A stretch of 64,000 bases of DNA from a bacterium. Lineage in GTDB: Bacteria > JAHJDO01. Each line of letters begins with the position of its first letter. The first letter of the stretch is position 1. A program made the translations under genes and the position numbers. Below are positions 12,213 to 38,953 of this stretch, in pieces. The notes under the pieces were generated by a model that did not search any database, was not told the origin of the DNA, and saw only the letters and a program-made list of their open reading frames with translations. Location of the stretch: NCBI GenBank assembly GCA_018812485.1, contig JAHJDO010000042.1:9512-73511 (forward strand), given 5' to 3'.

Positions 12213-12220
12213 GACAAATT

Positions 12221-15092: not shown

Positions 15093-15126
15093 TATGAACA
15101 AAAATTAGTTTTTAAAATATAAAAGC

Positions 15127-16620: not shown

Positions 16621-16622
16621 AT

Positions 16623-17699: not shown

Positions 17700-17759
17700 G
17701 GAACAAATATAAAGTTTAATAGTGGATTAATGTTAAAAAATCAATAGAATATTGTTTAT

Positions 17760-18479
17760 ATGGATCAGCGTATTCTAAACGAAATTGAACATGGGAGAAA
17801 AATAGTTAACTTTGCTGGTAAAGTTTGGGGTTGGGAAACTCCTGCTGGTAGAGAACGATGGAAGCGTAGAGTTGAGATGCTCGTTTCTAATGTTACGCCC
17901 GAGATGAAGGTGCTGGAAGTGGGTTGTGGAATAGGCTACCTGACAAAGTCGCTTCAGAATAAAAAGGCAACGATAGTATCAATTGATATTTCTTATGATT
18001 TGATTGAAGTTGCGAAAAGCAATGTTGGTATTGGCAACATTACCTTTTTGTTACAGAATGCATCCAGTTTAGGCTTAGCAGATAATTTATTTGATATAGT
18101 TATAGGAAGTTCAGTATTACATCATCTTGAAGTAGATAAAGCTTTAGCTGAATTTTACCGAGTTTTAAAGAAAGAGGGCTTGTTGGTTTTCACTGAACCT
18201 AATATGATGAATCCCCAAATTGCTGTTCAGAAGAATATTTCACTTTTTAAAAAATTAGCCGGGGATTCTCCTGATGAGGCAGCTTTTTTTCGCTGGCTAT
18301 TGAAGAAAAAATTAATAAAACACGGATTTCGTGATATCAAACTTAAAACTTTTGATTTTTTGCATCCAGAGACTCCAAAGGGTTTGGTCCCCTTTATGAA
18401 AGACATAGGTGACTTTGCAGAATCAATTCCGCTTATTTCTGAAATAGCCGGGTCAATATATATTGAAGCAAGAAAATAA
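17760..18479 (+). CDS. Class I SAM-dependent methyltransferase
   Basis: Motif I is VLEVGCGIGYLTKSL. LVFTEPN is a post-II motif. Confidence 0.7.
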   Translation: MDQRILNEIEHGRKIVNFAGKVWGWETPAGRERWKRRVEMLVSNVTPEMKVLEVGCGIGYLTKSLQNKKATIVSIDISYDLIEVAKSNVGIGNITFLLQNASSLGLADNLFDIVIGSSVLHHLEVDKALAEFYRVLKKEGLLVFTEPNMMNPQIAVQKNISLFKKLAGDSPDEAAFFRWLLKKKLIKHGFRDIKLKTFDFLHPETPKGLVPFMKDIGDFAESIPLISEIAGSIYIEARK

Positions 18480-18491
18480 AGAAAAAGGATT

Positions 18492-20252
18492 ATGAAGCAA
18501 AAGACAAATTTAATAGAAAGACGGTATATCTGCTTTATGCTCGCTCTTGTAGTTGCTGCTGGAGTCAGCTTTGTTAGATATAGAGCTTTGAATCTAAATG
18601 CTGCCGGCGCCTCATTTACAGCTTTTTTTGTTGATTATGAAGAAAAAACTCGTCATGAACATTGGAGCGAAATGGTTGAAAAAGAACAAGATCCTTTTAT
18701 TGAAAAAATATTCAATAACCAAAAAGAGTACTCTGTTAATTGGGGATTATATAATTTTTTTAATCTTCCAACACATTTCTTCTATAAAACATTTCATCTT
18801 AGAGGCATTAATTTATGGCTTGCAAATAAGTTATTGGCCACATGTATGGGTATAGGCGTAGCTTTGCTTGTTTTTCTAATTGCTGATTTATTCTATGGTC
18901 CTTTGGTCGGATTGATTTCAAGTATATTGATGGCATTTTCTCCGCATATATGGGTTCTTTATAATTTTAGCGCTGACCCAGCTCAACCATATAACTTGTT
19001 CTTCAGTTTGCTGACCATCTATTTTTTTCTGCTGTTTATGGAACGAAATAGGTGGTATTTCATGCTTATCTCAGGCTTTGTTATGGGAATTAATTTCTTA
19101 TTTTTTCATGTTGGTTCTTTCTTAATTCCCATAATAATATTTGTTTTTTGTATATATAACGTTGTTACAAAAAGAAGGATTTGTTACATTGGGCACTTTT
19201 TTATAATCGCATTAATCGCTATCTTTTCTGGAGCTGCCTTAAATTATTTTCACTCCTCTTATTTGAATTTATCCTTTAATCCACTTATTACATATATTAA
19301 AAATTACATTTCCTGGGGACCAACGGCATCTCACACAATACATGGAATTATGTTGTTTGACTGGAGTAAGCTGGTTCTGAACACTAGGCACCATATTCAA
19401 GGTGTGTTTATTAATGGGAAAACCCAGGACTGGCATCATGGCGCTTCTCTCCCATCAATTCCGATGGTCTATAACTACCTAATCTCTCTTTTCTTTGCAA
19501 TTGCTTGCTTTATTCATATTCGCAGCAGGAAACGGAAAGATGTGTTTTTCTTCATTTGGTTTCTGACTTATTTCGCCATTTATAGTTTTATTATTTTTGT
19601 AAGGCAGAAGAACATTTTTGGAGAACTCCCCCCTGTTTTTATTCTGGCAGCAAGTTCAGTGCCTGTAGTGGGTGCGTTTTTGTATAGAAAAAGAGAAAGC
19701 AAGTGGATGCATTTTCTTCTGCGTCAGAAAATAAAAATAACATCAAAAAGTAAGTCAATTTATTTCTTAGCAATTTTATTAACCGTTTCTTCTATGGGAA
19801 TAGGATCTTTTATAATTTTTAGATATCTTCCAAGCAAGAATTTTTATAGTTCTTATAGAGCCCACTATAAGATTTATCAACATTTTTCTAAAAAAGGCTA
19901 TACTGACAAGACAAAAATAATCATTACAAGTGCTGTCGGTTTGCCCGATGCAAATATGATGATGCGTCTTTTTACAGAGAATATTCCTCAAATTATCAAT
20001 TTAACGGATTTTGGAATACATCAGAGTACAGACAATAAAGATAAGAATAAGTGGGTGCAAATGGAATCCACTCTCAAAGAAAATAGCGATAAAATGTTTT
20101 ACTGCTTCGCTTACCTCGATGACCATATGTGGGCTAAGTATTCTGACGAAGCCTGGAGAAATATCTTTATGAAGATTCATCCTGAATCTATTCCTTTTGA
20201 TATAAAAGGTCTTGATGGTAAAATAATTTGGCGAATTTATGAAATAGAATAA
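18492..20252 (+). CDS. Polytopic membrane protein, possibly a GT-C-fold glycosyltransferase of the ArnT/PMT type
   Basis: The 586-aa translation has about 11-13 transmembrane helices. An acidic DYEE motif sits in the first extracytoplasmic loop after TM1, reminiscent of the GT-C DE motif, and the soluble C-terminal domain is about 150 aa. Confidence 0.35.
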   Translation: MKQKTNLIERRYICFMLALVVAAGVSFVRYRALNLNAAGASFTAFFVDYEEKTRHEHWSEMVEKEQDPFIEKIFNNQKEYSVNWGLYNFFNLPTHFFYKTFHLRGINLWLANKLLATCMGIGVALLVFLIADLFYGPLVGLISSILMAFSPHIWVLYNFSADPAQPYNLFFSLLTIYFFLLFMERNRWYFMLISGFVMGINFLFFHVGSFLIPIIIFVFCIYNVVTKRRICYIGHFFIIALIAIFSGAALNYFHSSYLNLSFNPLITYIKNYISWGPTASHTIHGIMLFDWSKLVLNTRHHIQGVFINGKTQDWHHGASLPSIPMVYNYLISLFFAIACFIHIRSRKRKDVFFFIWFLTYFAIYSFIIFVRQKNIFGELPPVFILAASSVPVVGAFLYRKRESKWMHFLLRQKIKITSKSKSIYFLAILLTVSSMGIGSFIIFRYLPSKNFYSSYRAHYKIYQHFSKKGYTDKTKIIITSAVGLPDANMMMRLFTENIPQIINLTDFGIHQSTDNKDKNKWVQMESTLKENSDKMFYCFAYLDDHMWAKYSDEAWRNIFMKIHPESIPFDIKGLDGKIIWRIYEIE

Positions 20253-23200
20253 TGATAGGACTTATGCAAAATCGATTAACACAGTGTGTATGTGGTATTA
20301 ATATTATCCGTTCAAAGTGGCAGGCTATATACTCAAGGCTGGCAAAGAGGCCGTTGCTCAGTTCTTTCATTATAATTCTTGTTTCATCTACAATATTCGG
20401 ACTGTGGTTCAAGATTAAACAGTTATCAGTAGCTTCCAGCAAATTAATATATTGTTATCCTCTGAGCTGGTATGGTATCTCCATCATGCAATTCTTATTG
20501 ATTTTTTGTGTTTTGTGGCTGGGGCTGAGTTTAATTAGTTTAATTATTGATCAAAAAAGAGAGGGAATAGCAAATAATCTATTGGTTTGTTCATTACCTT
20601 TCACTGCGTTCTGGCTATCGGCCTGTAATGTTAAACTTCTGTATCCTGTATGTTTGTTTTGGATATTTTCAACAGTTATTATATTTTTAAAGATTCGCCG
20701 GAATAAAAAGTTCTACGATAAGATAAAAGAGCCGCTTATTGTTTTAATAATTTTAGCAAGTGTATTTCTAGTAACATTCAAAAGTCTTTCACCTCTTTAT
20801 CATACAAGTTTTTTTGATGCATGGGGCAGGATTGATTTTTTTCTAAATTTCGAGCATCAATGGGAGAATGCAAAGGCATATGATTTCATAGGTAATTTTA
20901 CACAGCAGGGCAAGCTTGGCGGCTATTCACAGGGTATCTACATGATCAGCGAATTATCCTCATTAATTGTTTTATTGTTTGATATTCCTTTAGTAGATAC
21001 GCTGGGTAAATATGCTTCAATCAAGTTTATGTTTTTTTGGTTATATGTATTTGGTTCCTATGGATGTTATCTCTTGCTTCGTTACGGACTAAGATTATCC
21101 TTTTCACCTTCATTTATAGGCGGACTGGGATTTATTCTTGGTAATGCAGCATTTTTGTCTTTTAACAGCACAGAGTATTCTATTCATCAGGTTCCATTTC
21201 TCTTTCTTCCATGGGTTTTATTTTTACTTAATCGTGCTTACTCGCTAAATAAGTCTGCTATAGGTATATTGAGTGGTATAGGGCTGGCAGGGCTGGTGGC
21301 AAGTCTTTCTGAATACACACTGAGCTCTCATCCTGAGATAAATTTTCTCTATTTCTCTTTCTGCAATTCATATAATATTTACTTAGCGTTTCTTCTATTT
21401 AAGAGAAATCCTTTCAAGCTAAAGTCAATCCCCCAATTTTTTATAAATATAGCAATTTTCCCAATCATTCATATGGTAAGTTTGTCCTATAAATTGATAC
21501 CTCTGTTTAACTCATTGATAGGAAGAGAATATGCTTTGTATGATTCTAACCCTTACGCAGGGCTGCCTTGGGACTCATCATTAGTACATTGGTCAACCTT
21601 CTTTTTCAGAATCAGGGAGAATGTAATAACAACCCGGCTTGTTAGTCCGATTGCTAATCCGCCAATATTCTTTTTTACAAGCCAGTTTGTGATGTTAATG
21701 ATTTATAGCGCAGTTATTATTTTTTGTTTACATATTTTAAGTAAATTATTCAAGAACAGAGCAGGTTGCAGTCAGAATGCATCAATAGGGAATTCTTTCT
21801 TTTTTCTGGCGACACTGCTTTTTTTAGGTATAAACATGGCTATTGGAACACATTCATGGTTATCAGAATTAATGAGATTTACAGGTCGTCTTAGAGTTCA
21901 TGATTTTATCAGAATGAATATATTTTATTTCTTTTTTGCTTTAGTGGGAGCTATGATTGGGCTTGATTATATGCTTAAATTAAAAAGGCTAAAGATTGTT
22001 AACATAGTTTTCATTGTATATATATTGAATCTGATATTTGTGTACTTCTTACCATCATCTCCGAAGCACCCTGAGAAAATATATTTGGATATATGCATTT
22101 TAACTGGGATATATTTACTGATTTATTCATCAATAAGGTTTAAAGATATTAACCTGCAATGTTTGATTAAATTAATGCTTATTTCTGTTGCGCTCTTATC
22201 ATTTTTTACCATTGATGCTCGTGTTACTAAATTAGTAATAGAAAAAAATAATAAACAACTAAAATCAAAGGATAATATATATACCTCCTTTCGCACTGCT
22301 GTTACGTATTTAAAAAACAATCAGCATGACAAAGCGAGTTTCAAATATTTAGAGCGAAAGCTAAATAAATTTAACCAAAAAGTTGAAGCAACAAAAAAAG
22401 ACAAGACGGAATTGTATCTTAAAAAAATCATTTCGAAAGAAACTTATAAAGAAACTATGGATTATTATAAAAAGATCAAAAATATTCTTGATAAAAATTA
22501 TACTAATCAGCTCCAACTTTTTGAAGCAATTGCCCCTGAGATAGATAATTTCTATATGAATTATGGTCCGATACAGATAGTAATTGGGGCATCTCCCGCA
22601 GCTTGGGCGCCTTTAATAGTTGACACCTATAATGCAGTTCAGTTTTATCTCCCTGACAAATACAATCTTATAGTCAACACTTCGGGAAGTACTCAGTCTA
22701 CATTATTGCCGGTCGGCAAAAATTCTGAATTGTCAGCAGGGCTTTTCTACGGTCTTGGTCCGGCTTTTCCCTCAATAGATGTTAGCTTCCATTTAAAGAG
22801 CCTTTACCCTGATCTTTTAGCTAACAGGCATCCAGGAGAAACAGCCTATCATTGCTGGCCAATAGAATTAAAACACCTTATTTCAAAGAATTTTTCCGAT
22901 ACTCTGGGCAGACCAAAAATGAAGGATGTGAAAAAATTAACGCCGATGGCGTTAAAAAATATGCCGGATATTAAAAAACTTTTAAACATTTATGGCGTGG
23001 ATTACGTTATGTACCTTAAATATTATCTTAGGATGAGTGAGAAGGAGCATATAGGGCCCGGAGCTCTTTTCGATGTAGATAATCTTAAGAAGATGGGCTT
23101 TATACCTTTGAGATTGCCAGAATCTTACAGATTTACACCCAGATTTAATGAGCATTATGAGATGGGAGTTTTAGAGAACACTCAATCCTATGGCAAGGCA

Positions 23201-23740
23201 TATATTGCCAGGTGGGTAAAAGTGATCAAGCCGAGTGAAAATTTAGTAAATCTAAAAAAATACAGTTATTTTAATAAGTGGCCTCTTTCAGAAGATTTGA
23301 TATATAATTTTTCACATCATATGTCCAGCATACCGGATAATATGTGGAGGTCAGTTTTAATAGAGTCATCAGAATCTGAGGATTATTCAGATGTGCCATA
23401 TATTAACGCTACAGATAATAAGGTAAAGATAGTAAAAATTATTGGTTCAAAGGCGGTATTTGAGGTAGAATGCGGAAAAGATAATAGTTGGTTTGTTTAT
23501 AATACAGCTGCTTTAAAGGGGTGGAGAGCTTTTTTAGGCGCAAAAGAGATTCAGATACATAAAGCAAATCTAGGATTTATAGGAGTAAAGTTAAATAAAG
23601 GCAAGCATTTTTTGTGGATGGAGTACAAGCCGCTTTCAAGCAATATAGGTTTTGTCGTAACTTTTCTTGGTTGGATTCTTGTGTTTTTGTGTTTGATTTT
23701 TAAGTTGCCTTATGTGTTCATACAGACTAAAACGGAATAA
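20252..23740 (+). CDS. Very large polytopic membrane protein with YfhO-like architecture
   Basis: The 1162-aa translation has an N-terminal block of at least 14 transmembrane helices, a long coiled-coil/K-rich linker, a large extracytoplasmic domain and a final C-terminal helix (IGFVVTFLGWILVFLCLIF). This layout is typical of YfhO-family glycosyl-transfer membrane proteins. Confidence 0.35.
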   Translation: MIGLMQNRLTQCVCGINIIRSKWQAIYSRLAKRPLLSSFIIILVSSTIFGLWFKIKQLSVASSKLIYCYPLSWYGISIMQFLLIFCVLWLGLSLISLIIDQKREGIANNLLVCSLPFTAFWLSACNVKLLYPVCLFWIFSTVIIFLKIRRNKKFYDKIKEPLIVLIILASVFLVTFKSLSPLYHTSFFDAWGRIDFFLNFEHQWENAKAYDFIGNFTQQGKLGGYSQGIYMISELSSLIVLLFDIPLVDTLGKYASIKFMFFWLYVFGSYGCYLLLRYGLRLSFSPSFIGGLGFILGNAAFLSFNSTEYSIHQVPFLFLPWVLFLLNRAYSLNKSAIGILSGIGLAGLVASLSEYTLSSHPEINFLYFSFCNSYNIYLAFLLFKRNPFKLKSIPQFFINIAIFPIIHMVSLSYKLIPLFNSLIGREYALYDSNPYAGLPWDSSLVHWSTFFFRIRENVITTRLVSPIANPPIFFFTSQFVMLMIYSAVIIFCLHILSKLFKNRAGCSQNASIGNSFFFLATLLFLGINMAIGTHSWLSELMRFTGRLRVHDFIRMNIFYFFFALVGAMIGLDYMLKLKRLKIVNIVFIVYILNLIFVYFLPSSPKHPEKIYLDICILTGIYLLIYSSIRFKDINLQCLIKLMLISVALLSFFTIDARVTKLVIEKNNKQLKSKDNIYTSFRTAVTYLKNNQHDKASFKYLERKLNKFNQKVEATKKDKTELYLKKIISKETYKETMDYYKKIKNILDKNYTNQLQLFEAIAPEIDNFYMNYGPIQIVIGASPAAWAPLIVDTYNAVQFYLPDKYNLIVNTSGSTQSTLLPVGKNSELSAGLFYGLGPAFPSIDVSFHLKSLYPDLLANRHPGETAYHCWPIELKHLISKNFSDTLGRPKMKDVKKLTPMALKNMPDIKKLLNIYGVDYVMYLKYYLRMSEKEHIGPGALFDVDNLKKMGFIPLRLPESYRFTPRFNEHYEMGVLENTQSYGKAYIARWVKVIKPSENLVNLKKYSYFNKWPLSEDLIYNFSHHMSSIPDNMWRSVLIESSESEDYSDVPYINATDNKVKIVKIIGSKAVFEVECGKDNSWFVYNTAALKGWRAFLGAKEIQIHKANLGFIGVKLNKGKHFLWMEYKPLSSNIGFVVTFLGWILVFLCLIFKLPYVFIQTKTE

Positions 23741-23750
23741 TACGAGGAAA

Positions 23751-24902
23751 ATGAATTTCAGACTGGCTGCACTTCTGGATAAATTCGTGGGGAGGGTATT
23801 AGTTCAGTTAATCACTCTTTTACCCCCTTTTCCAAAACAAATTCCCCAAAATGCGAATTTTGAAAATATTCTAATAATAAAATTCTGGGGGTTTGGTTCC
23901 ATTTTGGAGGCAACACCTTTTTTCCACTCTTTAAAGCAGTCATATTCTGACGTAGCGCTGGATATCCTCACATTCTCAGATAATAAGCAGATAGTTGAGA
24001 GTCTTGGATTATTTCGAAATGTACATGTAATGGATTCACGAAAGGGAATTTTAAATTTTTTCAAACAAACAATTCGATTCATCCTGTCCTACAGACAAAA
24101 ATATTCACTGGTAATAGATATGGACTTCTTCGCGTATTTTTCAGCCTTAATAACTAAAATATCGGGTAGTATATACTCTTTGGGATTTAAGAGTTTTTTC
24201 CCCAGAAGAAACCGTTGCTATTCCTGCACGGTTGTCTTTGACCATTCCAGTCATATTCGGATGATCTTTCTTAAATTTTTGGATGCTCTTCACATAAAAA
24301 ACCCCGAAGATATTAGTTTGCTAGCGCCTAATGTTCCTGAAGAGAAGAAACTTTCGGTTATGGAAAAATTTCCGGAACTAAAGGATAATCGCCCAAAAAT
24401 TGCGGTAAATATTAATGCAGGTAATCTTTTCATGGGAAGACGATGGCCTGAGGAAAACTTTCGAAAGCTGATTGGTTTAATCCAGCAGGATTGTAATAAT
24501 CTGCAGATATATCTTGTCGGCGGAAAAGAGGACTTGCCTGTAGTAATATCTTTTTATGAATCGCTCCCGGACAAAAGAGGGGTTCATGTTACAGCCGGCA
24601 AGCTCGATATCATGGAATTTTCATACGTCCTATCTAAGATGGACTGTCTAATTACAAGCGATAGCGGACCGTTGCATATCGCTGAGGCAATAGGAATTCC
24701 TATAGTTGGTTTCTTTGGTCCGGAAACACCAAATCTTTACGGTCCGATGTCAGATAGAAGTTTAGTTTTCTATAAGAATCTATTTTGCAGTCCCTGCCTT
24801 AACACATACAACCACAAGATGAGTGATTGTACAAACAATCAGTGTCTTAAACTTATTTCGGCAGAAGATGTCTATGAGAAAATAAAAGACAGATATTTTT
24901 AG
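23751..24902 (+). CDS. Family 9 glycosyltransferase (heptosyltransferase-like)
   Basis: The N-terminus ILIIKFWGFGSILEATPFFHSLKQSY and the C-terminus ITSDSGPLHIAEAIGIPIVGFFGPETP are classic GT9 (WaaC/WaaF-type) motifs. I place the start at the ATG at 23751, which has a GAGGAAA ribosome-binding site, rather than at the track's overlapping 23712. Confidence 0.75.
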   Translation: MNFRLAALLDKFVGRVLVQLITLLPPFPKQIPQNANFENILIIKFWGFGSILEATPFFHSLKQSYSDVALDILTFSDNKQIVESLGLFRNVHVMDSRKGILNFFKQTIRFILSYRQKYSLVIDMDFFAYFSALITKISGSIYSLGFKSFFPRRNRCYSCTVVFDHSSHIRMIFLKFLDALHIKNPEDISLLAPNVPEEKKLSVMEKFPELKDNRPKIAVNINAGNLFMGRRWPEENFRKLIGLIQQDCNNLQIYLVGGKEDLPVVISFYESLPDKRGVHVTAGKLDIMEFSYVLSKMDCLITSDSGPLHIAEAIGIPIVGFFGPETPNLYGPMSDRSLVFYKNLFCSPCLNTYNHKMSDCTNNQCLKLISAEDVYEKIKDRYF

Positions 24903-24945
24903 AATAAGTTTTACCTGATTTCATGAAAGCATGTAAGGAAATTCA

Positions 24946-26988
24946 ATGAAGACAAACCTAATGCTATCAGTAGTTGTACCAGTTTATAATGACCAGAAAT
25001 ACCTAGAAGGGTGTTTAAGGTCTATATTTGGCTCAGATTACCCTGATTTTGAGGTAATAGTGGTAAATGATGCTAGTACTGATGATTCTTTAGAGATAGC
25101 GAGAAAATTCCCCTGTCAAATTGTAGATCTAAAAACAAATGCTGGTGTAGCCAATGCTAGAAATAAAGGGGCTAATAATGCCAAAGGCGATATACTGGTC
25201 TTTTTTGATTCAGATGTGGAAGTTGAGCGGGATACCTTGTCAAGATTTGCCAAAGCCCACCAAAGGACAGATATTAAAGTATGCCAATGCCAAATATCTC
25301 CTTGCTCTTTGACTCCAGGATATATTCCAGAACTGATGGCAGTAATCTGGAATTATGTAGCTTGCTTAATGGCGCCATATAGTACAGCTGTTCGTTCAAT
25401 GTCCTTTTCAATTGATAAATCAGTATTTTTTGAGATTGGAGGATTTAATACCGTTTTTAAGTCAGCTGGCGGGGAAGAATATGAGATTGGAAGAGTCATC
25501 CAACAGCACGATTACAGGATATTTCTAGACTCCTCATTTCGTATACACCATAATTTTGAGAATTTTTTATCAAGATTTAAGAAGTTATTTAGAAGAAGTT
25601 ACGTCTATGGAAGGTTTGTCCTTCAAAGAAACTTCAAACTCGATAGAGGCCATGGGACTTTAAAAGAGGGCATTAATTCCCTGCTTTCGGTAATTGGAAT
25701 CTTAGAACTTCTTATTTCGTCGTTTATAGGTTGGACTTTCCTTTTGTTTTTAGCTACCATTATAATCCAACTTCTTTCTGACCTTGATCAGGGTATTTAC
25801 GTCACTAGAAAGAAAGGATTATTCTTTTTCATTCGTTCAATCCCCATAACTTATCTTTGGTATTTTGCAATGGGTCTAGGGGTTATTAAAGCAGGATTAA
25901 TGCATTATTTTACAAAGGTGTGTTCGACCTTAAGGAAGATAACTTTTTTGTTATCAAAAACTCCGGCATATGTCATATTCTTCGTAACTGCTAAATGTAA
26001 CGCTGGCTGTAAACATTGTTTTAATTGGAAGAAGGTACAAGAACAGGGTGTATCAGACGATCTTAGTTTAGAAGAGATTGAAAAGATGTCTAAATCTTGG
26101 GGTAACATAAAATACATGACCTATAGTGGTGGAGAACCCAGTTTAAGAGAAGACATTGTGGAGATAACTCAAAGCTTCTTTAAGAATAACCACTTAGAAA
26201 TGCTAAATTTTATTACCAATGGCTTTGCAGTTACCTCAGTTGTTAGCAAGATAAAAAAAATACTGAGAACTTGTCCTGGTTTAGACCTTACAGTGAGTTT
26301 TTCTATCGATGGTCTTGGGGATCAACATGATTCAATAAGAAACGCACCGGGAATCTTTGGGAGAGTGTTAGAGTCTATAGATAAAATAAGAAACCTAGAA
26401 AAGTATTACCCTAACCTGAAAATACTTGCTATAACCACTTATTCTAGCTTTAACAGAGATAATATATTTGATATTGTTGATTATATAACTAAAGGATTAA
26501 AATTAGAAATGATCCTGAATTATGTTCGCGGGGATACATTGGAAAAAAGCGCAGACCAAGTTGATTTGGATACCTATATGAAAGCGACCGAGACAATCGC
26601 AAAGCAAAACGCAATCAATTCCAGAAGATCCAGCATAGTTAGGGCACTGGATAATGTCTGCTTTAAGTTAATCGCCAAAACAAAAGAAGAAAAGAAGAGC
26701 TTAATACCTTGTTTGGTAGGAAAAAAGCTTATAGAAATAGGTAATGACGGTAGAATTTTCCCCTGTGAGATGTTGGATGTTGACTTTGGTAATGTATGCG
26801 ATTTCAATTACGATATAAATAAAGTTTTAAAAACAAAAAAAGCTTATGATTTTTTTAAGTTTCTAAATAAAAGGGATTGCTTTTGTACCTGGGAATGTGC
26901 AATGAAAAATAATATCGTTTACTCTATACCGAAATACCCTAGTCTGTTTTTAGAATGGTTTAGACAAGGTTTAAGCTTAAAGAATTAA
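24946..26988 (+). CDS. Tri-partite fusion: N-terminal GT2 glycosyltransferase, central transmembrane helices, C-terminal radical SAM/SPASM domain
   Basis: The N-terminus is LSVVVPVYNDQKYLEGCLRSI...VVNDASTDDS...FFDSDV (GT-A). Hydrophobic segments follow (LLSVIGILELLISSFIGWTFLLFLATIII). Then comes FVTAKCNAGCKHCFNW (Cx3Cx2C) with SGGEPSL and a C-terminal SPASM-like CLVGKK...FPCEM...CDF...CFCTWECAM. Confidence 0.7.
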   Translation: MKTNLMLSVVVPVYNDQKYLEGCLRSIFGSDYPDFEVIVVNDASTDDSLEIARKFPCQIVDLKTNAGVANARNKGANNAKGDILVFFDSDVEVERDTLSRFAKAHQRTDIKVCQCQISPCSLTPGYIPELMAVIWNYVACLMAPYSTAVRSMSFSIDKSVFFEIGGFNTVFKSAGGEEYEIGRVIQQHDYRIFLDSSFRIHHNFENFLSRFKKLFRRSYVYGRFVLQRNFKLDRGHGTLKEGINSLLSVIGILELLISSFIGWTFLLFLATIIIQLLSDLDQGIYVTRKKGLFFFIRSIPITYLWYFAMGLGVIKAGLMHYFTKVCSTLRKITFLLSKTPAYVIFFVTAKCNAGCKHCFNWKKVQEQGVSDDLSLEEIEKMSKSWGNIKYMTYSGGEPSLREDIVEITQSFFKNNHLEMLNFITNGFAVTSVVSKIKKILRTCPGLDLTVSFSIDGLGDQHDSIRNAPGIFGRVLESIDKIRNLEKYYPNLKILAITTYSSFNRDNIFDIVDYITKGLKLEMILNYVRGDTLEKSADQVDLDTYMKATETIAKQNAINSRRSSIVRALDNVCFKLIAKTKEEKKSLIPCLVGKKLIEIGNDGRIFPCEMLDVDFGNVCDFNYDINKVLKTKKAYDFFKFLNKRDCFCTWECAMKNNIVYSIPKYPSLFLEWFRQGLSLKN

Positions 26989-27124
26989 CTATTTGAACTA
27001 ATCGCCAGACTTTTTTATTTCTTTGATTCGCAAACGTTCTATAGTGGTTGTTCCCCAGGATTTTCCTACATGAATTTTTAAGACAATGCTTCCTTCGGTT
27101 TCTTTATTTTTACAACACTAGACG

Positions 27125-27151
27125 TTGACAGCCTCATCTGTTTGATATAAA
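27125..27151 (+). promoter_or_regulatory. Candidate internal sigma70-like promoter, TTGACA then 15-16 nt then TATAAA(AT)
   Basis: A perfect -35 TTGACA lies at 27125-27130 and TATAAAAT at 27146-27153. This is in the only intergenic gap larger than 150 bp inside the locus, about 60 nt upstream of the start I prefer at 27213. Confidence 0.25.
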
Positions 27152-27212
27152 ATCTAAATTGAGGGTAAAGTGGTGGGGTTTACCTGATTTCGTAAAAAAT
27201 AAGGGATTAATC

Positions 27213-28256
27213 ATGTTAAGGTTTGGAGTTGTGGGATTTGGTAAAATGGGGATGCTGCATACCAGTATTTTGAATTCACTTAAGAACGTTGAACTTGCTG
27301 CGATTGTAGATAACTCTAAACTTATCCTGAGTTCTATCCAGACTTTAATGCCTCATGTTAAAACATATAAAGACCACAAAAACATGTTAATGAATGAAAA
27401 TCTGGATTTTGTCGTAATATCTACGCCGGTTCACACACATACAAAGATAGCAATAGATTGTATAGAGAATGGATGCCACGTATTTCTTGAAAAACCAGCG
27501 GCGCAGAATTTAGAAGATTTTTACACCTTAAGGGAAGCAAGTTTGAGAAATAGTGATTTGATGATAATTACAGGCTACTGTTACAGGTACAGAAGCACTT
27601 TTAAGAAGGTAAAGGAAATACTTGATAGCGGTCTGCTCGGTAAAATTATTCTTTTTAACGGTGTAATGTACTCTTCAGACATTCGTAAGCCTGAGAGAGG
27701 ATGGCGTTTCAAGAAAAGCGAATCAGGCGGGGGAGTCATCATAGATTCCACTTCTCATGTTATTGATATGTTAGCCTGGTATCTGGGAAAACCTCATGAA
27801 ATTATGGCAAGAACATCTAATTGGTATTCAAAAGAGGTAGAGGACTATGTGCACGCGGTATATAGCTTCAATGATGGGCTGACGGGATGGATTGAATCTT
27901 CATGGGCAGTGCCAAACTACCGCGTTCCCAGCATGAAAATACATCTGATAGGAACAAAAGGTGAGGTGATAGTAACAACAGACGAAGTTAGATTGTTTTT
28001 AAATGAAGGCGGTGGGGCATACAAAAAAGGATGGACAGTTCAGTACGCTGTAGACCTGAGGCCCCCCGTAAATTTTGAAATATTCGAAGAGTTTTACACT
28101 CTGCAGTTAGAAGAATTCATCGCATGTATAACTCACAAGTCAGATCATTTAAACAGTCTGCCTCATACGGGTGTTACACAGCAAATAATTGAAACAATCT
28201 ATAAGTCTTCAGCCGTGAATGGTCAGGGAATAACGATGGATTTGGAGGAATTATAA
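27213..28256 (+). CDS. Gfo/Idh/MocA-family NAD(P)-dependent oxidoreductase (a likely sugar or NDP-sugar dehydrogenase)
   Basis: MLRFGVVGFGKMGMLH is the Rossmann N-terminus typical of the family, and there is an EKP motif (VFLEKPAA). The ORF track begins at a TTG at 27159, but the ATG at 27213 has an AAGGGA ribosome-binding site and gives the canonical N-terminus. Confidence 0.75.
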   Translation: MLRFGVVGFGKMGMLHTSILNSLKNVELAAIVDNSKLILSSIQTLMPHVKTYKDHKNMLMNENLDFVVISTPVHTHTKIAIDCIENGCHVFLEKPAAQNLEDFYTLREASLRNSDLMIITGYCYRYRSTFKKVKEILDSGLLGKIILFNGVMYSSDIRKPERGWRFKKSESGGGVIIDSTSHVIDMLAWYLGKPHEIMARTSNWYSKEVEDYVHAVYSFNDGLTGWIESSWAVPNYRVPSMKIHLIGTKGEVIVTTDEVRLFLNEGGGAYKKGWTVQYAVDLRPPVNFEIFEEFYTLQLEEFIACITHKSDHLNSLPHTGVTQQIIETIYKSSAVNGQGITMDLEEL

Positions 28257-28258
28257 GT

Positions 28259-29155
28259 ATGTCTGCAAGGATTGACAATATAATTTTAGGAGATAACCAA
28301 TTTTCAGGCGTTAATCATTTATCTCAAGCTCTCGGACAACTCAAGGCAATCAAGTTTCAGGATGATAACGAAATTAAAAAAATAATCGAATATGCGATCT
28401 CTCAAGGGGCGCAAGGCATGATGTTATCAACCCATGCAGAAGTGGAAAGGATTCTTAATATTATTAGAAACGACGATCTTCTTCAGAATAATCTTAATAT
28501 TTACCCCAATATTCCTGATATTGCTAAATATGTAAGACGAGCAACAACGCAGGGTGGAATAACAGGGCTAATGAAATCTATCCTGAGTCAGCTCAGCTTC
28601 GGTATGAAAGCCAGTCTTATAATTGAGGGCGGAAAAGGTCTGATGAAAAAAGATATTCTCAAGATGTTAGAAGTATTAATAGATTTAGAGATGGCTTTTT
28701 TTAGAGGTTTGAAAATAAAAGCCATATTTCTACATACCATAGTTGTTGATTTAGCGCTTGGCCTTGGCCTTGACCAAATACTTTCACACTACTATTCTTA
28801 TATAAAGGATAAATATAATGTTATTCCCGGTTTTGGGACTCTAAATCTGCCAAAACTTCTTAATAAACTCCAGATGTTAGGGATTGATTACCCGTTGATA
28901 ATGACATCGGTTAACAAAAAAGGATTTTATATGAATCCAAGCAAGGCAGCATGTGAAGAAGTTATAAACGATGGTAAGTGCGAGATTTTAGCAATAGGAA
29001 CGCTTGCATCCGGAGCCATTTCTCTGCGTGAAGCGTATGAATATCTTTTTTCATTTCATAACATAAAATCATTAGTCATCGGCGCATCAACTAAAGATCA
29101 TATTAAACAGTCTTTCGATTTGGTGAAGTCTTACCATGCTCATAGGCAACAATAG
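28259..29155 (+). CDS. Hypothetical protein
   Basis: The 298-aa ORF is co-directional and tightly packed with its neighbours. I recognise no motif in it. Confidence 0.3.
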   Translation: MSARIDNIILGDNQFSGVNHLSQALGQLKAIKFQDDNEIKKIIEYAISQGAQGMMLSTHAEVERILNIIRNDDLLQNNLNIYPNIPDIAKYVRRATTQGGITGLMKSILSQLSFGMKASLIIEGGKGLMKKDILKMLEVLIDLEMAFFRGLKIKAIFLHTIVVDLALGLGLDQILSHYYSYIKDKYNVIPGFGTLNLPKLLNKLQMLGIDYPLIMTSVNKKGFYMNPSKAACEEVINDGKCEILAIGTLASGAISLREAYEYLFSFHNIKSLVIGASTKDHIKQSFDLVKSYHAHRQQ

Positions 29156-31475
29156 GCATAGGATTAGTTCTGCTTTGAAAATAATATCTAAATTTTACAA
29201 TGAAGAGCTTGAAAGCATCTTTGCTAGAATCTTATACTTCTTTAACACGATTGATACATATTTTATTCTTGTAGGAATCAGCTCTTTTGTCATCGTTTTT
29301 CCGGGAAAAGTCAATGTTATAGTGCTGGTGCTATCTCTGTTGTTTGCGTTGATTACGGCAAAAATCGCTGATTTTTATCCCAGTTTTGTGATACTTGCTA
29401 TTCCTGTACTTATTATACTTGGAATTGTATTAGATCTTTCAGGGTCATTAATAATGGCTCTTTTTATTGTAAATACAGCCCTGTTTTTTATAATACAGTT
29501 TGTTTTTATGGGCATACCTGATTCAATAGTTGCCCGTGATATACGAGTTGCTTTTATAAAAATATACAATTCATTATTTACGGTTGCTCCAACAACAGTT
29601 TCTTTTTCTATGAGTGTCTTCTTTTCATTCTATGTATCCTTTTGTATAGCTGCAGCCGTTTCATGCCGAGCAATAAAGGATTATACCTTGCTTGGGGCAG
29701 CGGGAGTAATTCTCTTTTTTTGTGCTTTGCTTGCCCGTTCAATGCGACCCAAAAACCTTTTCAGCAAGTTCCATAAGCCGGATGTCAGGGCTAACCCGAT
29801 ATTTAAACGGGTAGTGATTCTGAATATAGATGGTGTAAGAAAAGATGTTTTTGACTCATTAAATTTACCTGCAATAGCCAGATTAACCAAGGAGGGTACA
29901 AGCCATGCATTTGGACTGGAGACTGTATATCGGGCGTTAACCAATCCTGCATTTGCAAGTATATTTACGGGTACTATTCCCAGTGTTCACGGCGTCCGCA
30001 GCAACAACTTCGGACAATCAATTGTAACAGAGGGTTTGCCTGATATTGTCCCGTCTATTGCATACGGTTCAATGCATGTTAAACATTTTTGCAAGAAGTA
30101 CTGGCAGACACGTATAGTCTCATTGCCCCGCCATTCCGTATATCTTTCCGACGATATAATGGTAGACTGGCTTAAAGATGATATGCTTAATAGACCAGAG
30201 ATACGTCTTTTTGTCGCAGATTTCAGCGAAGCGGATTTTCTTGCTCACGCCTACGGCAGTAAGTCTAGGCAATACAAGGAAGCTCTTCAGAGGATTGATA
30301 AGCGTATAGGAGATTTTATAGATTGGATGAAATCAAATAACATGTCAGATGATACAGCGGTTATTGTATGTTCTGATCATGGAATAGCGGCAATTGACCA
30401 CAGCTATCTTATAGCTGATTCAGAAAGATATGTGCCCTTTTTGATTTATGGGAAGGGTATCAAAAAAGGATTCCATATACAGCGGCCGGGAACAATTATG
30501 GATATTTGCTGTACAGTCGCATACTTTCTTGGAATCCGATATCCCTATAATTCAAGAGGACAGGTCTTTACTGAAGCGCTTGAGGATTCTGATCTTGAGT
30601 CAGAGAAAGAAACATTTGTCAGTAGATTCAACCAGTTGAAGTATGATGCTGAAGCTGAGCAGTACCATTGTGACCATGTTGAGATTTATGCCGGAGACGC
30701 ACAGTGGTGGGATCAGTGTATTTCGAAGTTTATAATGGACAAAAAATGCGATCTGAGAGTGCTTGATATCGGATGCGGCAATGGCTTTGTGGGTGAAAGA
30801 TTTGTCGCAATGGGGGTCAATTTTAGTGATTTTGTATGTATGGATATTTCTAAAAACATACTTGAGGAAGCTAAGAAAACGCTTGGGAAATATCCCGGAT
30901 TTTCCTTTACAACCAGTTTAGATGATGTTAATGGAACATTTGACATAATTACTGCCAGCTCGGTTTTTCATCATGTTGTTCATCCGGATAAGCTTGCAGA
31001 TATCATTGACAGGTTTCTCGCAGAAGATGGAATTGTGATTGGAAGCCATGAGCCAAATAAGGAAGCATTTAAAAAGAAGTTGTTTTATGCAGGAGCAGCT
31101 TTATATAAAGGAATAGGCGGAAGTATAAGTATTAGCAATGAAGTCGTGCGTGAGTTCAATGATCTGCTCCGTAACAGATATCCAAATGCTCCCGGCGTCT
31201 GCCGTGAAGAGATACTTCAGATGGTAGAGTATCACTCTCCTTTGGAGCAGTATGATAAGTCTATTGATTTACAAAGCGGGTTCATACCGGATGAGTTCTG
31301 CAAACTATGCTTTCCAGGATATAAAGTACTCCTGCTTGAGACCTACTCAACATTTTCTCATAGGCTATGGCTGTCAAAACATAAAAGAATACAATCTTTG
31401 CTTGTTGCTATGTTTAATCTTTTATTTAAACGGGGCAATCTCTTCAGATTCGTCTTGAGGAAAAAGGAGATATGA
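29136..31475 (+). CDS. Fusion of membrane-anchored alkaline-phosphatase-superfamily (type I phosphodiesterase/NPP-like) domain with a C-terminal class I SAM methyltransferase domain
   Basis: About six N-terminal transmembrane helices come first. VVILNIDGVRKDVFDS and VIVCSDHGIAAIDHS then match the metal-ligand motifs of the Phosphodiest/AP superfamily. The C-terminus VLDIGCGNGFVGERF...IITASSVFHHV is a methyltransferase motif I plus post-II. Confidence 0.55.
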   Translation: MLIGNNRHRISSALKIISKFYNEELESIFARILYFFNTIDTYFILVGISSFVIVFPGKVNVIVLVLSLLFALITAKIADFYPSFVILAIPVLIILGIVLDLSGSLIMALFIVNTALFFIIQFVFMGIPDSIVARDIRVAFIKIYNSLFTVAPTTVSFSMSVFFSFYVSFCIAAAVSCRAIKDYTLLGAAGVILFFCALLARSMRPKNLFSKFHKPDVRANPIFKRVVILNIDGVRKDVFDSLNLPAIARLTKEGTSHAFGLETVYRALTNPAFASIFTGTIPSVHGVRSNNFGQSIVTEGLPDIVPSIAYGSMHVKHFCKKYWQTRIVSLPRHSVYLSDDIMVDWLKDDMLNRPEIRLFVADFSEADFLAHAYGSKSRQYKEALQRIDKRIGDFIDWMKSNNMSDDTAVIVCSDHGIAAIDHSYLIADSERYVPFLIYGKGIKKGFHIQRPGTIMDICCTVAYFLGIRYPYNSRGQVFTEALEDSDLESEKETFVSRFNQLKYDAEAEQYHCDHVEIYAGDAQWWDQCISKFIMDKKCDLRVLDIGCGNGFVGERFVAMGVNFSDFVCMDISKNILEEAKKTLGKYPGFSFTTSLDDVNGTFDIITASSVFHHVVHPDKLADIIDRFLAEDGIVIGSHEPNKEAFKKKLFYAGAALYKGIGGSISISNEVVREFNDLLRNRYPNAPGVCREEILQMVEYHSPLEQYDKSIDLQSGFIPDEFCKLCFPGYKVLLLETYSTFSHRLWLSKHKRIQSLLVAMFNLLFKRGNLFRFVLRKKEI

Positions 31476-32989
31476 AGATAATTTTTCCTGTTATGGGTGC
31501 TGAGAATATATCAGTCAGCTATCTTTCGACAGTTCTTAAAGAGGCTGGGCATATAGTTAAGGTGGCTTTTGATCGTTCACTATTTGATGATAAGCAATAT
31601 TTTTCCGTTCCTTTTCTCAGCCGTATGTTCACTGAAAAAAAGAGAATGATAAAAGAAATAATCAGGGAGAAGCCTGATATTCTTGCTATGTCTGTATTCG
31701 CCGATAATTACCAATGGGGTCTTGAAGTGGTACGTGAAGTACGTAAATGCCACATGTGCATTACTGTATGGGGTGGAATGCATCCTACTTCCTGCTCGGA
31801 GGAAGTTATCAGTAGAGACGAGGTGGATTACATGATTGTAGGGGAGGGGGAAACCCCTTTCATGGAATTGCTTGAAGCGCTTGAAAAGAAGGAATCGCCA
31901 GAAAGTATTTCCAATTTGTGGATGAAGAAAAACGGCAAGGTAATTCGTAACAAGCCTAGATTATTAATGGACCCCAAAGCTTTTCCAGCTGTAGACAAAA
32001 CCATATATGAAAAGTTTATCCCAATGAAGGACTATTACCTTACTGTTACATCTAAGGGGTGTATTGCCCACTGCAGTTATTGTACGCAGAATTTTCTCTG
32101 GAAATGGGAAAAAGAAGAAGGATTAGGACATTTTCTCAGAGAAAAATCTGTTGATGCTGTATTAGACGAATTAAAGGCAATGAAAAAACGTTATAGTATC
32201 CGTTATGTTGATATAAAAAATAATGTACTTTCAGGTAACAGCAAATGGTTTGATGAGTTTCTTGCGCGTTATCCTGAAGAGATTCAGTTGCCTTTCAGAA
32301 TAATGGGACATCCTCTGTTGTTTCAAAAAGACCTGGCAGTCAAATTAAAAAAGGCAGGCTGTCATCATATTCAAATAGGAATTGAATCATTAAATCCCGA
32401 AGTAAGAAAAAAAGTGCTGTTTCGCAACGAGACTAACGAGCAGATTATCAGAGCGCTTGATAATATTGAAAAAGCAGGTATTAATTTTTCCGCAGATCTG
32501 ATGTTGGGTCTTCCGGGAGAGTCGGAGGACGACCTGATTTTAGCTCTTAAAACTCTTGCAAAATATCGCAGACTCATACGTTCGTCCGTATTCTGGCTTC
32601 AGTATTTGCCAAGCGTTGATATTACCAGAATGGCCATATTGAAAGGCTATATAAACAAAGGAAACGAAATAAAAATTGTTCAGGGGCTTCAGAATAACTA
32701 CTTATCAACAGGCTCATCAATGGAGCCGCAGAGAATGAGAATACTCAAGACATACCATATCATGTTCCGTTTACTTCCTATTGTTTCTCAGAGAATCATG
32801 AATTTTCTGATAAACTCTGGGATATATCGCATATTCAGGTATATCCCATTCCAGATATTTGCTATCATCGTCATTGATGTGTTTGTTTCTTTTGTGCGCA
32901 AGGACTACTATGCAAAATGGATTATGGGATGGTATTTCAAACAGCTGTTTAAGCATCTTACCGGAAAGGTAGAGACAATTTCAGATTAA
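31472..32989 (+). CDS. B12-binding-domain radical SAM protein (class B-like)
   Basis: The N-terminal cobalamin-binding-like domain (MKIIFPVMGAENISVSYLSTVLKEAGH...DILAMSV) precedes TSKGCIAHCSYCTQ (Cx3Cx2C). This is the first of three tandem paralogs. Confidence 0.75.
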   Translation: MKIIFPVMGAENISVSYLSTVLKEAGHIVKVAFDRSLFDDKQYFSVPFLSRMFTEKKRMIKEIIREKPDILAMSVFADNYQWGLEVVREVRKCHMCITVWGGMHPTSCSEEVISRDEVDYMIVGEGETPFMELLEALEKKESPESISNLWMKKNGKVIRNKPRLLMDPKAFPAVDKTIYEKFIPMKDYYLTVTSKGCIAHCSYCTQNFLWKWEKEEGLGHFLREKSVDAVLDELKAMKKRYSIRYVDIKNNVLSGNSKWFDEFLARYPEEIQLPFRIMGHPLLFQKDLAVKLKKAGCHHIQIGIESLNPEVRKKVLFRNETNEQIIRALDNIEKAGINFSADLMLGLPGESEDDLILALKTLAKYRRLIRSSVFWLQYLPSVDITRMAILKGYINKGNEIKIVQGLQNNYLSTGSSMEPQRMRILKTYHIMFRLLPIVSQRIMNFLINSGIYRIFRYIPFQIFAIIVIDVFVSFVRKDYYAKWIMGWYFKQLFKHLTGKVETISD

Positions 32990-32993
32990 AACT

Positions 32994-34466
32994 ATGAAAA
33001 TATTATTTATTGATAATTTTTCGTTTAATTTTGGCATCGCATCTATTTCATCTGTATTGAAACAGAGTGGTCATGATGTGGAGTTGTTATATTACACATT
33101 TTCTAAAATGAAAGGCATCGATATTTATCGTAATCCCAGTAAATATTATTCGTTTAATAAGATAGCTGATGAGATAATTGGAAGGAAACCTGATATTATA
33201 GGGTTTTCTGTTTTAAGCTCAAATTACATGTTCTATAAAAACACAGCTGAAGCCATTCGCAGAAGAACAGATATTCCTATTTTAACAGGAGGTGTGTTCC
33301 CGACTATGAGTCCAGATTTTTTTATAGAGAATACCTGCTGCGACTTTGTATTCAGGGGAGAAGCAGAACCTGTAATTGTGGAACTTATTGAAAAAATAGC
33401 TTTAGGAAAGTATTATGATGTGCCAAATATCGTTTACAGAGAAAAAGGAGGGACTGTTGTTCACAACGAAATGTCCAGCTTTGTCGATGACCTAGATGCT
33501 CTTCCGTTTTATGATAAGGAAGTATATCCAGGTGTTCCATTTCAGTTGAATATGTCAACCAGCCGTGGATGTGTCAATTCCTGCAGCTATTGTTCTTCCG
33601 GGAAATATACCAGACTAACGGTCAGAGGAGGAGCTGGAAAAGTCAGGAAAAGAAGCGTGGACTCTATTATTAAAGAGATAAAACAAGCTTTGCGAAAATG
33701 GCCATATAAAGAGATCTCTTTCTGGGACGATTTTTTTATTACAACACCTAAATGGTTATCGGAATTTGTGGAGAAATATAGCAAAGAAATAAATCTTCCT
33801 TATAATTGCATAGCTTTTCCTGCGGTGATAAATAATGAGGTAGCGTCATTATTAGCCGGGTCTGGATGCAATGTTGTATGTATGGGATTTCAGACTGCAA
33901 ATGAAGAATATAAAAAGAATGTACTAAGAAGAAGAGAAACTAAAAAACAAGTTGCTAAAGCCATAAACCATCTGGAAGAGCATGGAGTTAAATACAGCTT
34001 AGACCATATTTTTAATTTACCAGGTGAGACAAAAGAGCATATTGAAGAATCTTTGGATTTTTTTATCAATAACAAAGTAAAATGGGTATCAATATATTTC
34101 CTTAATTATTATCCTGATTCCGATATTACAAAGTATTCCTATGATAATGGTTTTATTGGCTCTGAGCAGTTCTCTAAAATCATGAAAAATGAACTGATTG
34201 GCGATCAGGCATTTAAAGGAACCATCGTTGATAAAAAGAAATCTAAAGAGCAGGTTCAGTACGCTTTACTTTTTAGATTGATTAATTTACTGCCTGCCAA
34301 ATGGTTGAAACGGATGCTAAAGAATGATATTCAAAAAAGGTTTCCGACTAATAAATATTTATACTATAGTCTTTCTTTGTTAACCTTGTTTAAAGCGCAG
34401 GGTTTTAGAAGAGTTTTGACATTTGTCAATCCTTATTTCAAATTCAGGAAAAACGTATGCGAATAG
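32994..34466 (+). CDS. B12-binding-domain radical SAM protein (class B-like)
   Basis: The N-terminal B12-like domain precedes TSRGCVNSCSYCSS. Confidence 0.75.
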   Translation: MKILFIDNFSFNFGIASISSVLKQSGHDVELLYYTFSKMKGIDIYRNPSKYYSFNKIADEIIGRKPDIIGFSVLSSNYMFYKNTAEAIRRRTDIPILTGGVFPTMSPDFFIENTCCDFVFRGEAEPVIVELIEKIALGKYYDVPNIVYREKGGTVVHNEMSSFVDDLDALPFYDKEVYPGVPFQLNMSTSRGCVNSCSYCSSGKYTRLTVRGGAGKVRKRSVDSIIKEIKQALRKWPYKEISFWDDFFITTPKWLSEFVEKYSKEINLPYNCIAFPAVINNEVASLLAGSGCNVVCMGFQTANEEYKKNVLRRRETKKQVAKAINHLEEHGVKYSLDHIFNLPGETKEHIEESLDFFINNKVKWVSIYFLNYYPDSDITKYSYDNGFIGSEQFSKIMKNELIGDQAFKGTIVDKKKSKEQVQYALLFRLINLLPAKWLKRMLKNDIQKRFPTNKYLYYSLSLLTLFKAQGFRRVLTFVNPYFKFRKNVCE

Positions 34467-34479
34467 GAAAAGAGTAAAA

Positions 34480-35898: not shown

Positions 35899-35932
35899 TT
35901 GTGATGATACCTGTAAAAAAGGAGTAAAGGAT

Positions 35933-36988: not shown

Positions 36989-37007
36989 ATTTAAAGGAAT
37001 TAAAGTC

Positions 37008-37625: not shown

Positions 37626-37647
37626 TGTTGTTGTAATCGGAGGTTTT

Positions 37648-38948: not shown

Positions 38949-38953
38949 ATATT

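Follow-up and report, generated by a model that had tools for sequence, protein, structure and literature searches.

The 64,000-nucleotide stretch of bacterial DNA analysed here (hereafter the window; NCBI GenBank assembly GCA_018812485.1, contig JAHJDO010000042.1, forward-strand positions 9,512 to 73,511) carries at 24946..26988 (+) a 680-codon open reading frame (ORF) whose product joins a family 2 glycosyltransferase (GT2) to a radical S-adenosylmethionine (SAM) enzyme through a series of membrane helices. The frame has no internal stop, and the two other forward frames contain 68 and 70 stops over the same interval. A Shine-Dalgarno-like AAGGA (24935..24939 (+)), located 6 nt 5′ of the ATG, is a putative ribosome-binding site.

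The N-terminal part of the protein (residues ~1-230; 24946..25635, like all features of the gene on the forward strand) is a GT2 domain of GT-A fold. Its DxD motif (D88-S89-D90; 25207..25215), the predicted metal and nucleoside diphosphate (NDP)-sugar site, is invariant both in an alignment of 22 full-length fused homologues, from which conservation was scored, and in nine fused or split glycosyltransferase (GT) halves. This domain includes a basic amphipathic interface helix (residues 207-228, 'RFKKLFRRSYVYG'; 25564..25629), recognized from an AlphaFold2 model and the average content of basic residues. It is followed by two predicted transmembrane (TM) helices (residues 239-257 and 264-278; 25660..25779), on which Kyte-Doolittle hydropathy (peak at 251-275), AlphaFold2 and the charge pattern agree, and by a third, long hydrophobic/amphipathic helix (residues 292-336; 25819..25953), which is also seen in the model, is flanked by K/R on both sides and leads into the radical SAM domain. 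The partial TIM-barrel core of the latter (residues ~342-560; 25969..26625) includes the predicted ligands of the SAM-cleaving [4Fe-4S] cluster, C351-x3-C355-x2-C358 (25996..26019), and the SAM-binding "GGE" motif in the form GGEP (residues 395-398; 26128..26139), both invariant in the 22 homologues. The C-terminal region, which cysteine conservation identifies as truncated SPASM/Twitch-like, has the pattern C589-x12-G602-x4-C607 ... C645-x-C647-x3-C651 (26710..26898). Pfam Fer4_12 is also matched by the 680-residue protein.

The full-length AlphaFold model that an earlier note on this DNA had proposed was calculated from an alignment of 22 homologues (pLDDT 87.8, pTM 0.80) and places helices 207-228, 239-257, 264-278, 280-290 and 292-336 in the region that separates the catalytic domains. 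Hydropathy peaks at residues 243-278, and hydrophobic helices span residues 239-318. Together with the Pfam matches and invariant motifs of both halves, these data bear out the domain layout that the same note had read from the translation, namely GT-A motifs in the first ~230 residues, hydrophobic helices and a complete Cx3Cx2C radical SAM core.

The fusion is genuine and evolutionarily maintained

The two halves had been taken for a single continuous polypeptide, and they are one. In addition to the uninterrupted ORF, a separately assembled Logan contig (run SRR27458548) matches window positions 24255..28099, including the domain junction, at 100% identity and with no gap, and the closest relatives, with 46-63% identity, are all fused and conserve the linker. 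A word-indexed search of 5.8 billion proteins recovered about 28 two-domain relatives (27-63% identity) originating from JGI, ENA, NCBI and Logan assemblies; 22 relatives align end to end through the linker, whose conserved positions are F294, Y306, G310, G312, P340 and Y342. In a profile search of 1.84 billion representatives of 50%-identity clusters, at least 60 proteins of 670-785 residues match the whole profile in one stretch, and a separate hidden Markov model for each half detected both in 93 of 176 retrieved proteins, with the same fusion kept down to 25% identity.

An alternative in which adjacent GT2-TM and radical SAM genes were joined by a sequencing or assembly error in the window could draw on the natural split forms of other lineages, and on one metagenome-assembled genome (MAG) in which the halves overlap in different frames. 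Separate genes in related genomes had been named in advance as the observation that would speak against a fusion, and to the letter such genes exist (loci L006, L011 and L018); they are, however, natural split forms and not evidence of an error here, because the closest relatives are all fused. Set against the identical independent contig, the linker-conserving relatives from four sources, the at least 60 fused cluster representatives and the stop-rich alternative frames, a frameshift or assembly merge is so improbable that it can be considered effectively refuted.

The overlapping halves belong to a Thermoanaerobaculaceae MAG (L015, 6140-8430), where the GT2 half occupies 6140..7333 and the radical SAM half 6523..8430; this arrangement may correspond to a frameshifted fusion gene or to an assembly error in that MAG.

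A membrane GT2 without hallmarks of processive synthases

Assignment of the N-terminal half to GT2 is borne out by a match of Pfam Glycos_transf_2 (PF00535) to residues 8-127 (110.7 bits against a cut-off of 23.3, E=9.2e-32), by the DxD motif and by the Rossmann-like GT-A fold; three further GT2-related Pfam models also score above their cut-offs. Residues invariant among the 22 homologues are D88 and D90 of the DxD motif, E177 (within GGEE) and H202. Profile matches in the PDB include chondroitin synthase, GalT1, TarS, heparosan synthase and PcManGT, with GtrB, ArnC and DPMS scoring lower. At the sequence level, this half is a generic GT2, and its best NCBIfam match is EpsD (86 against a cut-off of 370). 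Inspection of the family alignment did not reveal a QxxRW motif, the consensus at the corresponding interface helix being FRRSY, and the 2-3 hydrophobic helices are too few for a translocation channel. Lacking both this motif and a multi-helix channel, the fusion departs from processive GT2 enzymes of the cellulose, hyaluronan or chitin synthase type, and we read its GT half as a probable non-processive membrane GT2 that would act on a membrane-bound acceptor.

The distribution of charges around the helices bears on their topology. Segment 205-238, which precedes the first helix, averages 8.1 K+R across the family, loop 258-263 is uncharged, and both loop 279-291 and the segment after residue 313 are basic. 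Radical SAM enzymes require cytoplasmic Fe-S assembly, SAM and reductant; because the C-terminal domain must accordingly be cytoplasmic and K/R residues lie on both flanks of helix 292-336, the latter is taken to be interfacial or re-entrant, which would leave two true membrane spans (239-257 and 264-278).

A radical SAM half with a five-cysteine tail

Pfam Radical_SAM (PF04055) matches residues 347-484 (E=1.5e-16), and the Cx3Cx2C motif, the GGE motif and the partial TIM-barrel fold place the C-terminal half within the radical SAM superfamily. Among the 22 homologues, C351, C355, C358, G395-G396-E397-P398, C589, G592, G602, C607, C645 and C647 are invariant, with C651 and C443 nearly so. The B12-binding domain PF02310 is absent from the fusion according to Pfam, though six further genes in the window carry it, and the five other small radical SAM/SPASM genes of the window are only ~24% identical or show no detectable identity.

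The tail had previously been described as SPASM-like. A SPASM domain has a seven-cysteine motif, CX9-15GX4C ... CX2CX5CX3C ... C, and two auxiliary clusters. In the fusion, the first half of this motif (C589-x12-G602-x4-C607) is followed by CxCx3C in place of Cx2Cx5Cx3C and there is no terminal cysteine, so that five conserved cysteines (C589, C607, C645, C647 and C651) stand against seven; likewise, Pfam SPASM (PF13186) matches residues 589-648 at E=0.005 and 17.4 bits, under its gathering score of 21.5 bits. The description thus applies to the first half-motif and the conserved cysteines, but not to a complete SPASM domain. Stand-alone radical SAM relatives with 34-40% identity keep the same tail cysteine pattern, and one protein (P0178) contains just eight cysteines (3+5), all within these motifs. 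Since five cysteines could ligate one auxiliary [4Fe-4S] cluster, the tail is probably better described as Twitch-like or as a truncated SPASM. Its cysteine count and spacing fit Twitch, and NCBIfam N_Twi_rSAM matches relatives at 45-61 bits, under its cut-off of 170.

Attempts to assign the radical SAM half to a named family were unsuccessful: NCBIfam matches lay below cut-off, sequence matches to the PDB were weak and cluster names were generic ("radical SAM protein"). Curated equivalogs, including the PTO1314 family, NirJ/AhbD, MoaA and PapB, gave no match above cut-off, and NCBIfam cut-offs were also unreached by nine relatives (eight radical SAM proteins and the GT half P0154). The nearest folds are those of SkfB, the sugar-nucleoside decarboxylase BlsE, SuiB and anSME.

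Fused and split forms recur across lineages

Besides the window, the fused form was found on a JGI contig (L002), at L003/L004 and in a Woesearchaeota MAG (L005). In the split form, a GT2-plus-helices gene of ~315-330 codons is directly followed by a radical SAM gene of ~350-380 codons, the GT gene ending at ~residue 320 of the fusion, that is, after the third hydrophobic helix. Adjacent pairs of this kind occur in Planctomycetia (L006), Parcubacteria (L011) and Vicingus (L018), and in a Bacteriovoracaceae MAG (L007) GT2-TM and radical SAM genes lie at most 2 kb apart. On a tree of the radical SAM domain, fused forms intermingle with stand-alone ones, at a cost of at least 27 parsimony state changes, a count that is only indicative because the tree is a rough neighbour-joining one and stand-alone forms were called without genome context. 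This pattern speaks for a stable functional pair whose members have repeatedly fused and separated. The interleaving points to a persistent functional partnership of GT2-TM and radical SAM, and since the two also occur elsewhere as adjacent separate genes, the fusion would reflect an obligatory partnership of both activities.

Several partial or unusual forms were also encountered. P0154 (334 residues) is a stand-alone GT2-plus-helices half. Radical SAM proteins of 450-490 residues (P0158, P0161, P0164 and P0242) keep the hydrophobic N-terminal extension and have no GT-A domain, and could be either fragments truncated at contig ends or real membrane-anchored radical SAM variants. The representative search also found giant proteins of 1,500-4,400 residues (P0155, P0165, P0171, P0188, P0204, P0220 and others) with 4-9 separate profile-matched stretches, the best of which falls on the GT2 part of the profile; these proteins have no relation to the window.

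Among named homologues, those closest to the fusion carry the labels Woesearchaeota (57%) and Nanoarchaeota (46%). At 2213..2917 (-), the window also contains a pseudopilin-like ORF with a GspG-type prepilin N-terminus and a C-terminal H-x9-DG motif. This motif is typical of Planctomycetes, Verrucomicrobia and Lentisphaerae, and its presence suggests that the window derives from a bacterium of the PVC (Planctomycetes-Verrucomicrobia-Chlamydiae) group. The discrepancy between a PVC-like pseudopilin and archaeal-labelled homologues would be accounted for by inter-domain transfer or by mis-binned MAG contigs.

The fusion gene lies in a surface-glycan block rich in radical SAM genes

Pfam scans place the fusion gene within a co-directional block of ~59 kb (3709..62746 (+)) dedicated to surface glycans, which encodes NDP-sugar dehydratases and epimerases, a Wzx-like flippase, GT2, GT4 and GT9 glycosyltransferases, methyltransferases, a DegT aminotransferase and an NTP-transferase. 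Two GT-C-like membrane proteins are also part of the block, a PMT_2 protein at 18492 (586 residues) and a YfhO-like protein at 20252 (1162 residues, with a C-terminal YfhO match). Both (18492-23740) are located just upstream of a GT9 gene and the fusion, and PMT_2 also flanks relatives in L005 and L010. Radical SAM domains number 12: six belong to B12-binding proteins (genes at 7963, 31472, 32994, 34423, 44478 and 51691), five to small radical SAM/SPASM-like proteins (12790, 16623, 35933, 38954 and 42465) and one to the fusion.

Every fused or split-pair locus that was examined has a glycan-assembly context comprising Wzx/Wzy, Bac_transf, WecG, GT4, GT9, GT-C or NDP-sugar enzymes. Thus, L002 carries WecG, Bac_transf and Wzy; L003 carries NeuB/CMP-sugar genes, two B12-binding radical SAM genes, an MraY-like GT4, Wzy and GT9; L005 has a PMT_2 GT-C gene directly upstream, and three B12-binding radical SAM genes; and in L018 Wzx is directly upstream. 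B12-binding radical SAM genes and methyltransferases recur beside homologues of the fusion in L003, L005, L011, L030 and L044. A universal neighbour that might reveal the substrate was sought and not found, with Gfo/Idh/MocA oxidoreductases, B12-binding radical SAM enzymes and methyltransferases recurring inconsistently.

Neither a precursor peptide nor a recognition domain emerged as a candidate. Pfam detects no RRE (RiPP recognition element)- or PqqD-like domain in the fusion, whose radical SAM core is preceded by hydrophobic helices, and no convincing precursor-peptide gene is present in the flanking gaps (43 and 170 bp), where the only small ORFs are two of 26 residues that were not examined further. 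With no RRE/PqqD hit and glycan genes as neighbours, the protein does not qualify as a radical SAM/SPASM maturase of RiPPs (peptides made by ribosomes and modified after translation).

The block contains other genes of interest. In the middle of its radical SAM genes, a PNP_UDP_1 nucleosidase (MTA/SAH-nucleosidase-like) and a phosphoribosyltransferase (40017-41521) may salvage 5′-deoxyadenosine or adenine from heavy radical SAM turnover. A row of genes at 53193-58468, encoding a split transketolase (first the N-terminal part, followed by the pyrimidine-binding and C-terminal parts), a GHMP kinase, a DegT aminotransferase, a NUDIX hydrolase and an NTP-transferase, suggests a pathway that leads to an unusual amino NDP-sugar, possibly chain-extended or branched. 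Two further fusions join a methyltransferase to a GT2 (15127-16620; 497 residues) and a type I phosphodiesterase/sulfatase-like domain to a methyltransferase (29136-31475; 779 residues), and two adjacent genes of the TIGR04076 family (36978-38142) are located between a radical SAM/SPASM gene and a short-chain dehydrogenase/reductase gene.

Radical tailoring of a membrane-bound glycan intermediate as the probable function

On balance, the protein is probably a bifunctional membrane-anchored enzyme: it would glycosylate a glycan intermediate bound to the membrane and use radical chemistry to tailor a sugar of that same intermediate. The N-terminal half retains an intact GT-A/GT2 domain of predicted inverting type, with its DxD motif and with a fold that continues into the interface and membrane helices; working on the cytoplasmic face, it would use an NDP-sugar to glycosylate a membrane-bound acceptor, which is most likely an oligosaccharide linked to polyprenyl diphosphate. 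The C-terminal half is likewise an intact radical SAM enzyme, with ligands for the SAM cluster, a GGE motif and a five-cysteine Twitch-like tail. Held by the membrane helices at the same face of the membrane, this domain would cleave SAM reductively, and the resulting 5′-deoxyadenosyl radical would take a hydrogen from one of the sugars on this same lipid-linked intermediate, be it the newly added residue or one of the acceptor. By analogy with HygY, NeoN and BtrN, the most plausible outcome would be epimerization or oxidation to a keto-sugar, although the specific chemistry of the radical step is proposed with much less confidence than the general model.

The earlier note had gone further and claimed that the radical SAM enzymes of this locus act on the glycan or its carrier and not on a peptide. 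Considering the glycan-assembly loci, the lack of an RRE by Pfam and the lack of a convincing peptide ORF, a glycan or carrier substrate is the best reading for the fusion; as regards the locus's 11 remaining radical SAM genes, only their context suggests the same.

Several observations weigh against a role in tailoring glycan intermediates. No member of the family has a known substrate or product, and no neighbouring gene is conserved in all loci compared. The fusion reaches no NCBIfam cut-off, its best radical SAM match being TIGR03961 (68.6 bits against 306); its sequence matches in the PDB are weak, and the nearest folds of the radical SAM half include as many peptide maturases (SkfB, SuiB, anSME, CteB and PqqE) as sugar enzymes. 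There is no GT2-TM partner within 10 kb of the radical SAM relatives at L008, L010, L012-L014, L016, L017, L019 and L020, which are lower-scoring ones; the radical SAM family is therefore not obligately tied to this GT. Finally, the AlphaFold2 alignment is shallow, with 22 sequences only, and the hydrophobic helices number three: an odd number of spans would place the GT and radical SAM domains on opposite sides of the membrane.

Alternatively, the radical SAM domain could alter a soluble NDP-sugar by deoxygenation, epimerization or decarboxylation and pass an unusual, possibly unstable donor to the fused GT2, with the helices serving the transferase only. DesII and BlsE act on nucleotide- or nucleoside-linked sugars; in the fused forms, however, the radical SAM domain is always C-terminal to the membrane helices and the split always falls after the third of these, which suggests that it works at the membrane. 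The apparently stand-alone proteins P0158, P0161, P0164 and P0242, though maybe truncated, also keep their hydrophobic extension, and no nucleotide-binding signature was identified, so that coupling on the donor side is rather doubtful. Less likely still is remodelling of a lipid, whereby the GT2 would glycosylate a membrane lipid, as do ceramide glucosyltransferase (GT21) and HpnI, and the radical SAM domain would rearrange the head group, for example by the ring contraction to a cyclitol proposed for HpnJ and Cds, or modify a lipid or polyprenyl chain. PF13506 (Glyco_transf_21) does score above its cut-off (25.0 against 21.7 bits), and a GT followed by a radical SAM enzyme has a precedent on lipid-linked sugars in HpnI/HpnK/HpnJ and in the proposed route of the calditol synthase Cds (PMC13459092); yet all loci resemble polysaccharide clusters of Wzx/Wzy type and not lipid biosynthesis, HpnJ is a B12-binding radical SAM enzyme whereas the fusion has no B12 domain, and the weak matches to Tes and HpnH do not stand out from the matches to numerous other radical SAM families.

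A peptide or protein maturase, in which the SPASM-like domain would introduce a thioether or cross-link into a ribosomal peptide or surface protein and the GT2 would glycosylate the same polypeptide in the manner of SunS, would agree with the five maturases among the nearest folds, with weak NCBIfam matches to PapB and WgkB and with SunS as a weak match of the GT2. The hydrophobic helices that occupy the N-terminal side of the core, where Pfam detects no RRE- or PqqD-like domain, the flanking gaps devoid of a convincing peptide gene, the variable neighbours, which are glycan genes, and a tail of five cysteines instead of the seven typical of peptide-modifying SPASM enzymes make this very improbable.

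A broader possibility can be put forward tentatively: these proteins might represent an unrecognized class of membrane "transfer-and-rearrange" enzymes, in which the radical SAM domain alters the skeleton or stereochemistry of the sugar just attached by its own GT2, and which would have moved repeatedly, as a module of radical SAM-rich glycan loci, between bacteria (PVC, CPR (Candidate Phyla Radiation), Bacteroidota and Acidobacteriota) and archaea (DPANN and Poseidoniia). Candidate changes are C-epimerization, oxidation, ring contraction to a carbasugar and C-C bond formation; such enzymes would yield residues unobtainable from the NDP-sugar pool.

The domain architecture had been presented as undescribed, and within the full-text literature searched no paper was found that describes a GT2-radical SAM fusion, nor was a curated family found. 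The architecture is nonetheless not rare, given its at least 60 cluster representatives, and the automatic JGI annotation of one relative (P0004) names both halves, so that "not described" holds for the searched literature only; NCBI names two others (P0017 and P0025) just "glycosyltransferase". Each domain comes from a well-known superfamily, and the logic of a GT combined with a radical SAM enzyme has separate-protein precedents; what is new is the covalent membrane-anchored fusion, its split-pair equivalent and a distinct five-cysteine radical SAM family that has no curated model or characterized member. The diversity of surface polysaccharides is usually ascribed to soluble NDP-sugar pathways and glycosyltransferases, and most of what is known about radical SAM chemistry on glycans comes from antibiotics of the aminoglycoside and nucleoside types. 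A conserved membrane-anchored GT2-radical SAM pair, fused or adjacent, in loci with up to a dozen genes for radical SAM enzymes suggests that lipid-linked glycan intermediates undergo radical tailoring, and that uncultured bacteria and DPANN archaea have in it a widespread but unstudied means of diversifying their glycans. As a single polypeptide with two separately mutable active sites, the fusion also offers a handle for finding the first substrate of this radical SAM family.

Comparison with known systems

In its GT half, the fusion resembles a minimal cellulose-synthase-like membrane GT2, PcManGT of Pyrobaculum calidifontis (PDB 6yv7), in that the GT fold likewise runs into interface and membrane helices; identity to PcManGT and to the cores of hyaluronan and cellulose synthases (8snc and 4p00) is only 13-19%, however, and none of these proteins has a radical SAM domain. 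The polyprenyl-phosphate GTs of three-component systems (GtrB, CsbB, ArnC and DPMS) are GT2 enzymes of ~320 residues with C-terminal membrane helices, a layout also predicted for the GT half of the fusion, and GT-C genes (PMT_2 and YfhO-like) are found near the fusion or its relatives in the window, L005 and L010.

As for the radical SAM half, SPASM enzymes such as anSME, SkfB, SuiB and PqqE have seven cysteines where the fusion has five, and the fusion, with no RRE detected, lies in a glycan-assembly context. Twitch radical SAM enzymes that act on sugars are represented by the epimerases HygY and NeoN and the dehydrogenase BtrN (PMC10991966). Their match to the fusion, with its CX12GX4C...CxCx3C pattern, is distant and does not amount to membership at the sequence level; moreover, they are soluble stand-alone enzymes of aminoglycoside pathways, whereas the fusion is membrane-anchored and associated with polysaccharide assembly.

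The closest parallel in logic is provided by HpnI (GT2/GT21), HpnK and HpnJ, which produce the cyclitol ether of bacteriohopanepolyol, and by the GT and Cds of the proposed calditol route. These are separate proteins that act on hopanoid or glycerol dialkyl glycerol tetraether (GDGT) acceptors, and HpnJ carries a B12-binding domain that is absent from the fusion; shared by all, as proposed here for the fusion, would be a membrane GT that adds a hexose to a lipid-linked acceptor and a radical SAM enzyme that then remodels this hexose (PMC13459092).

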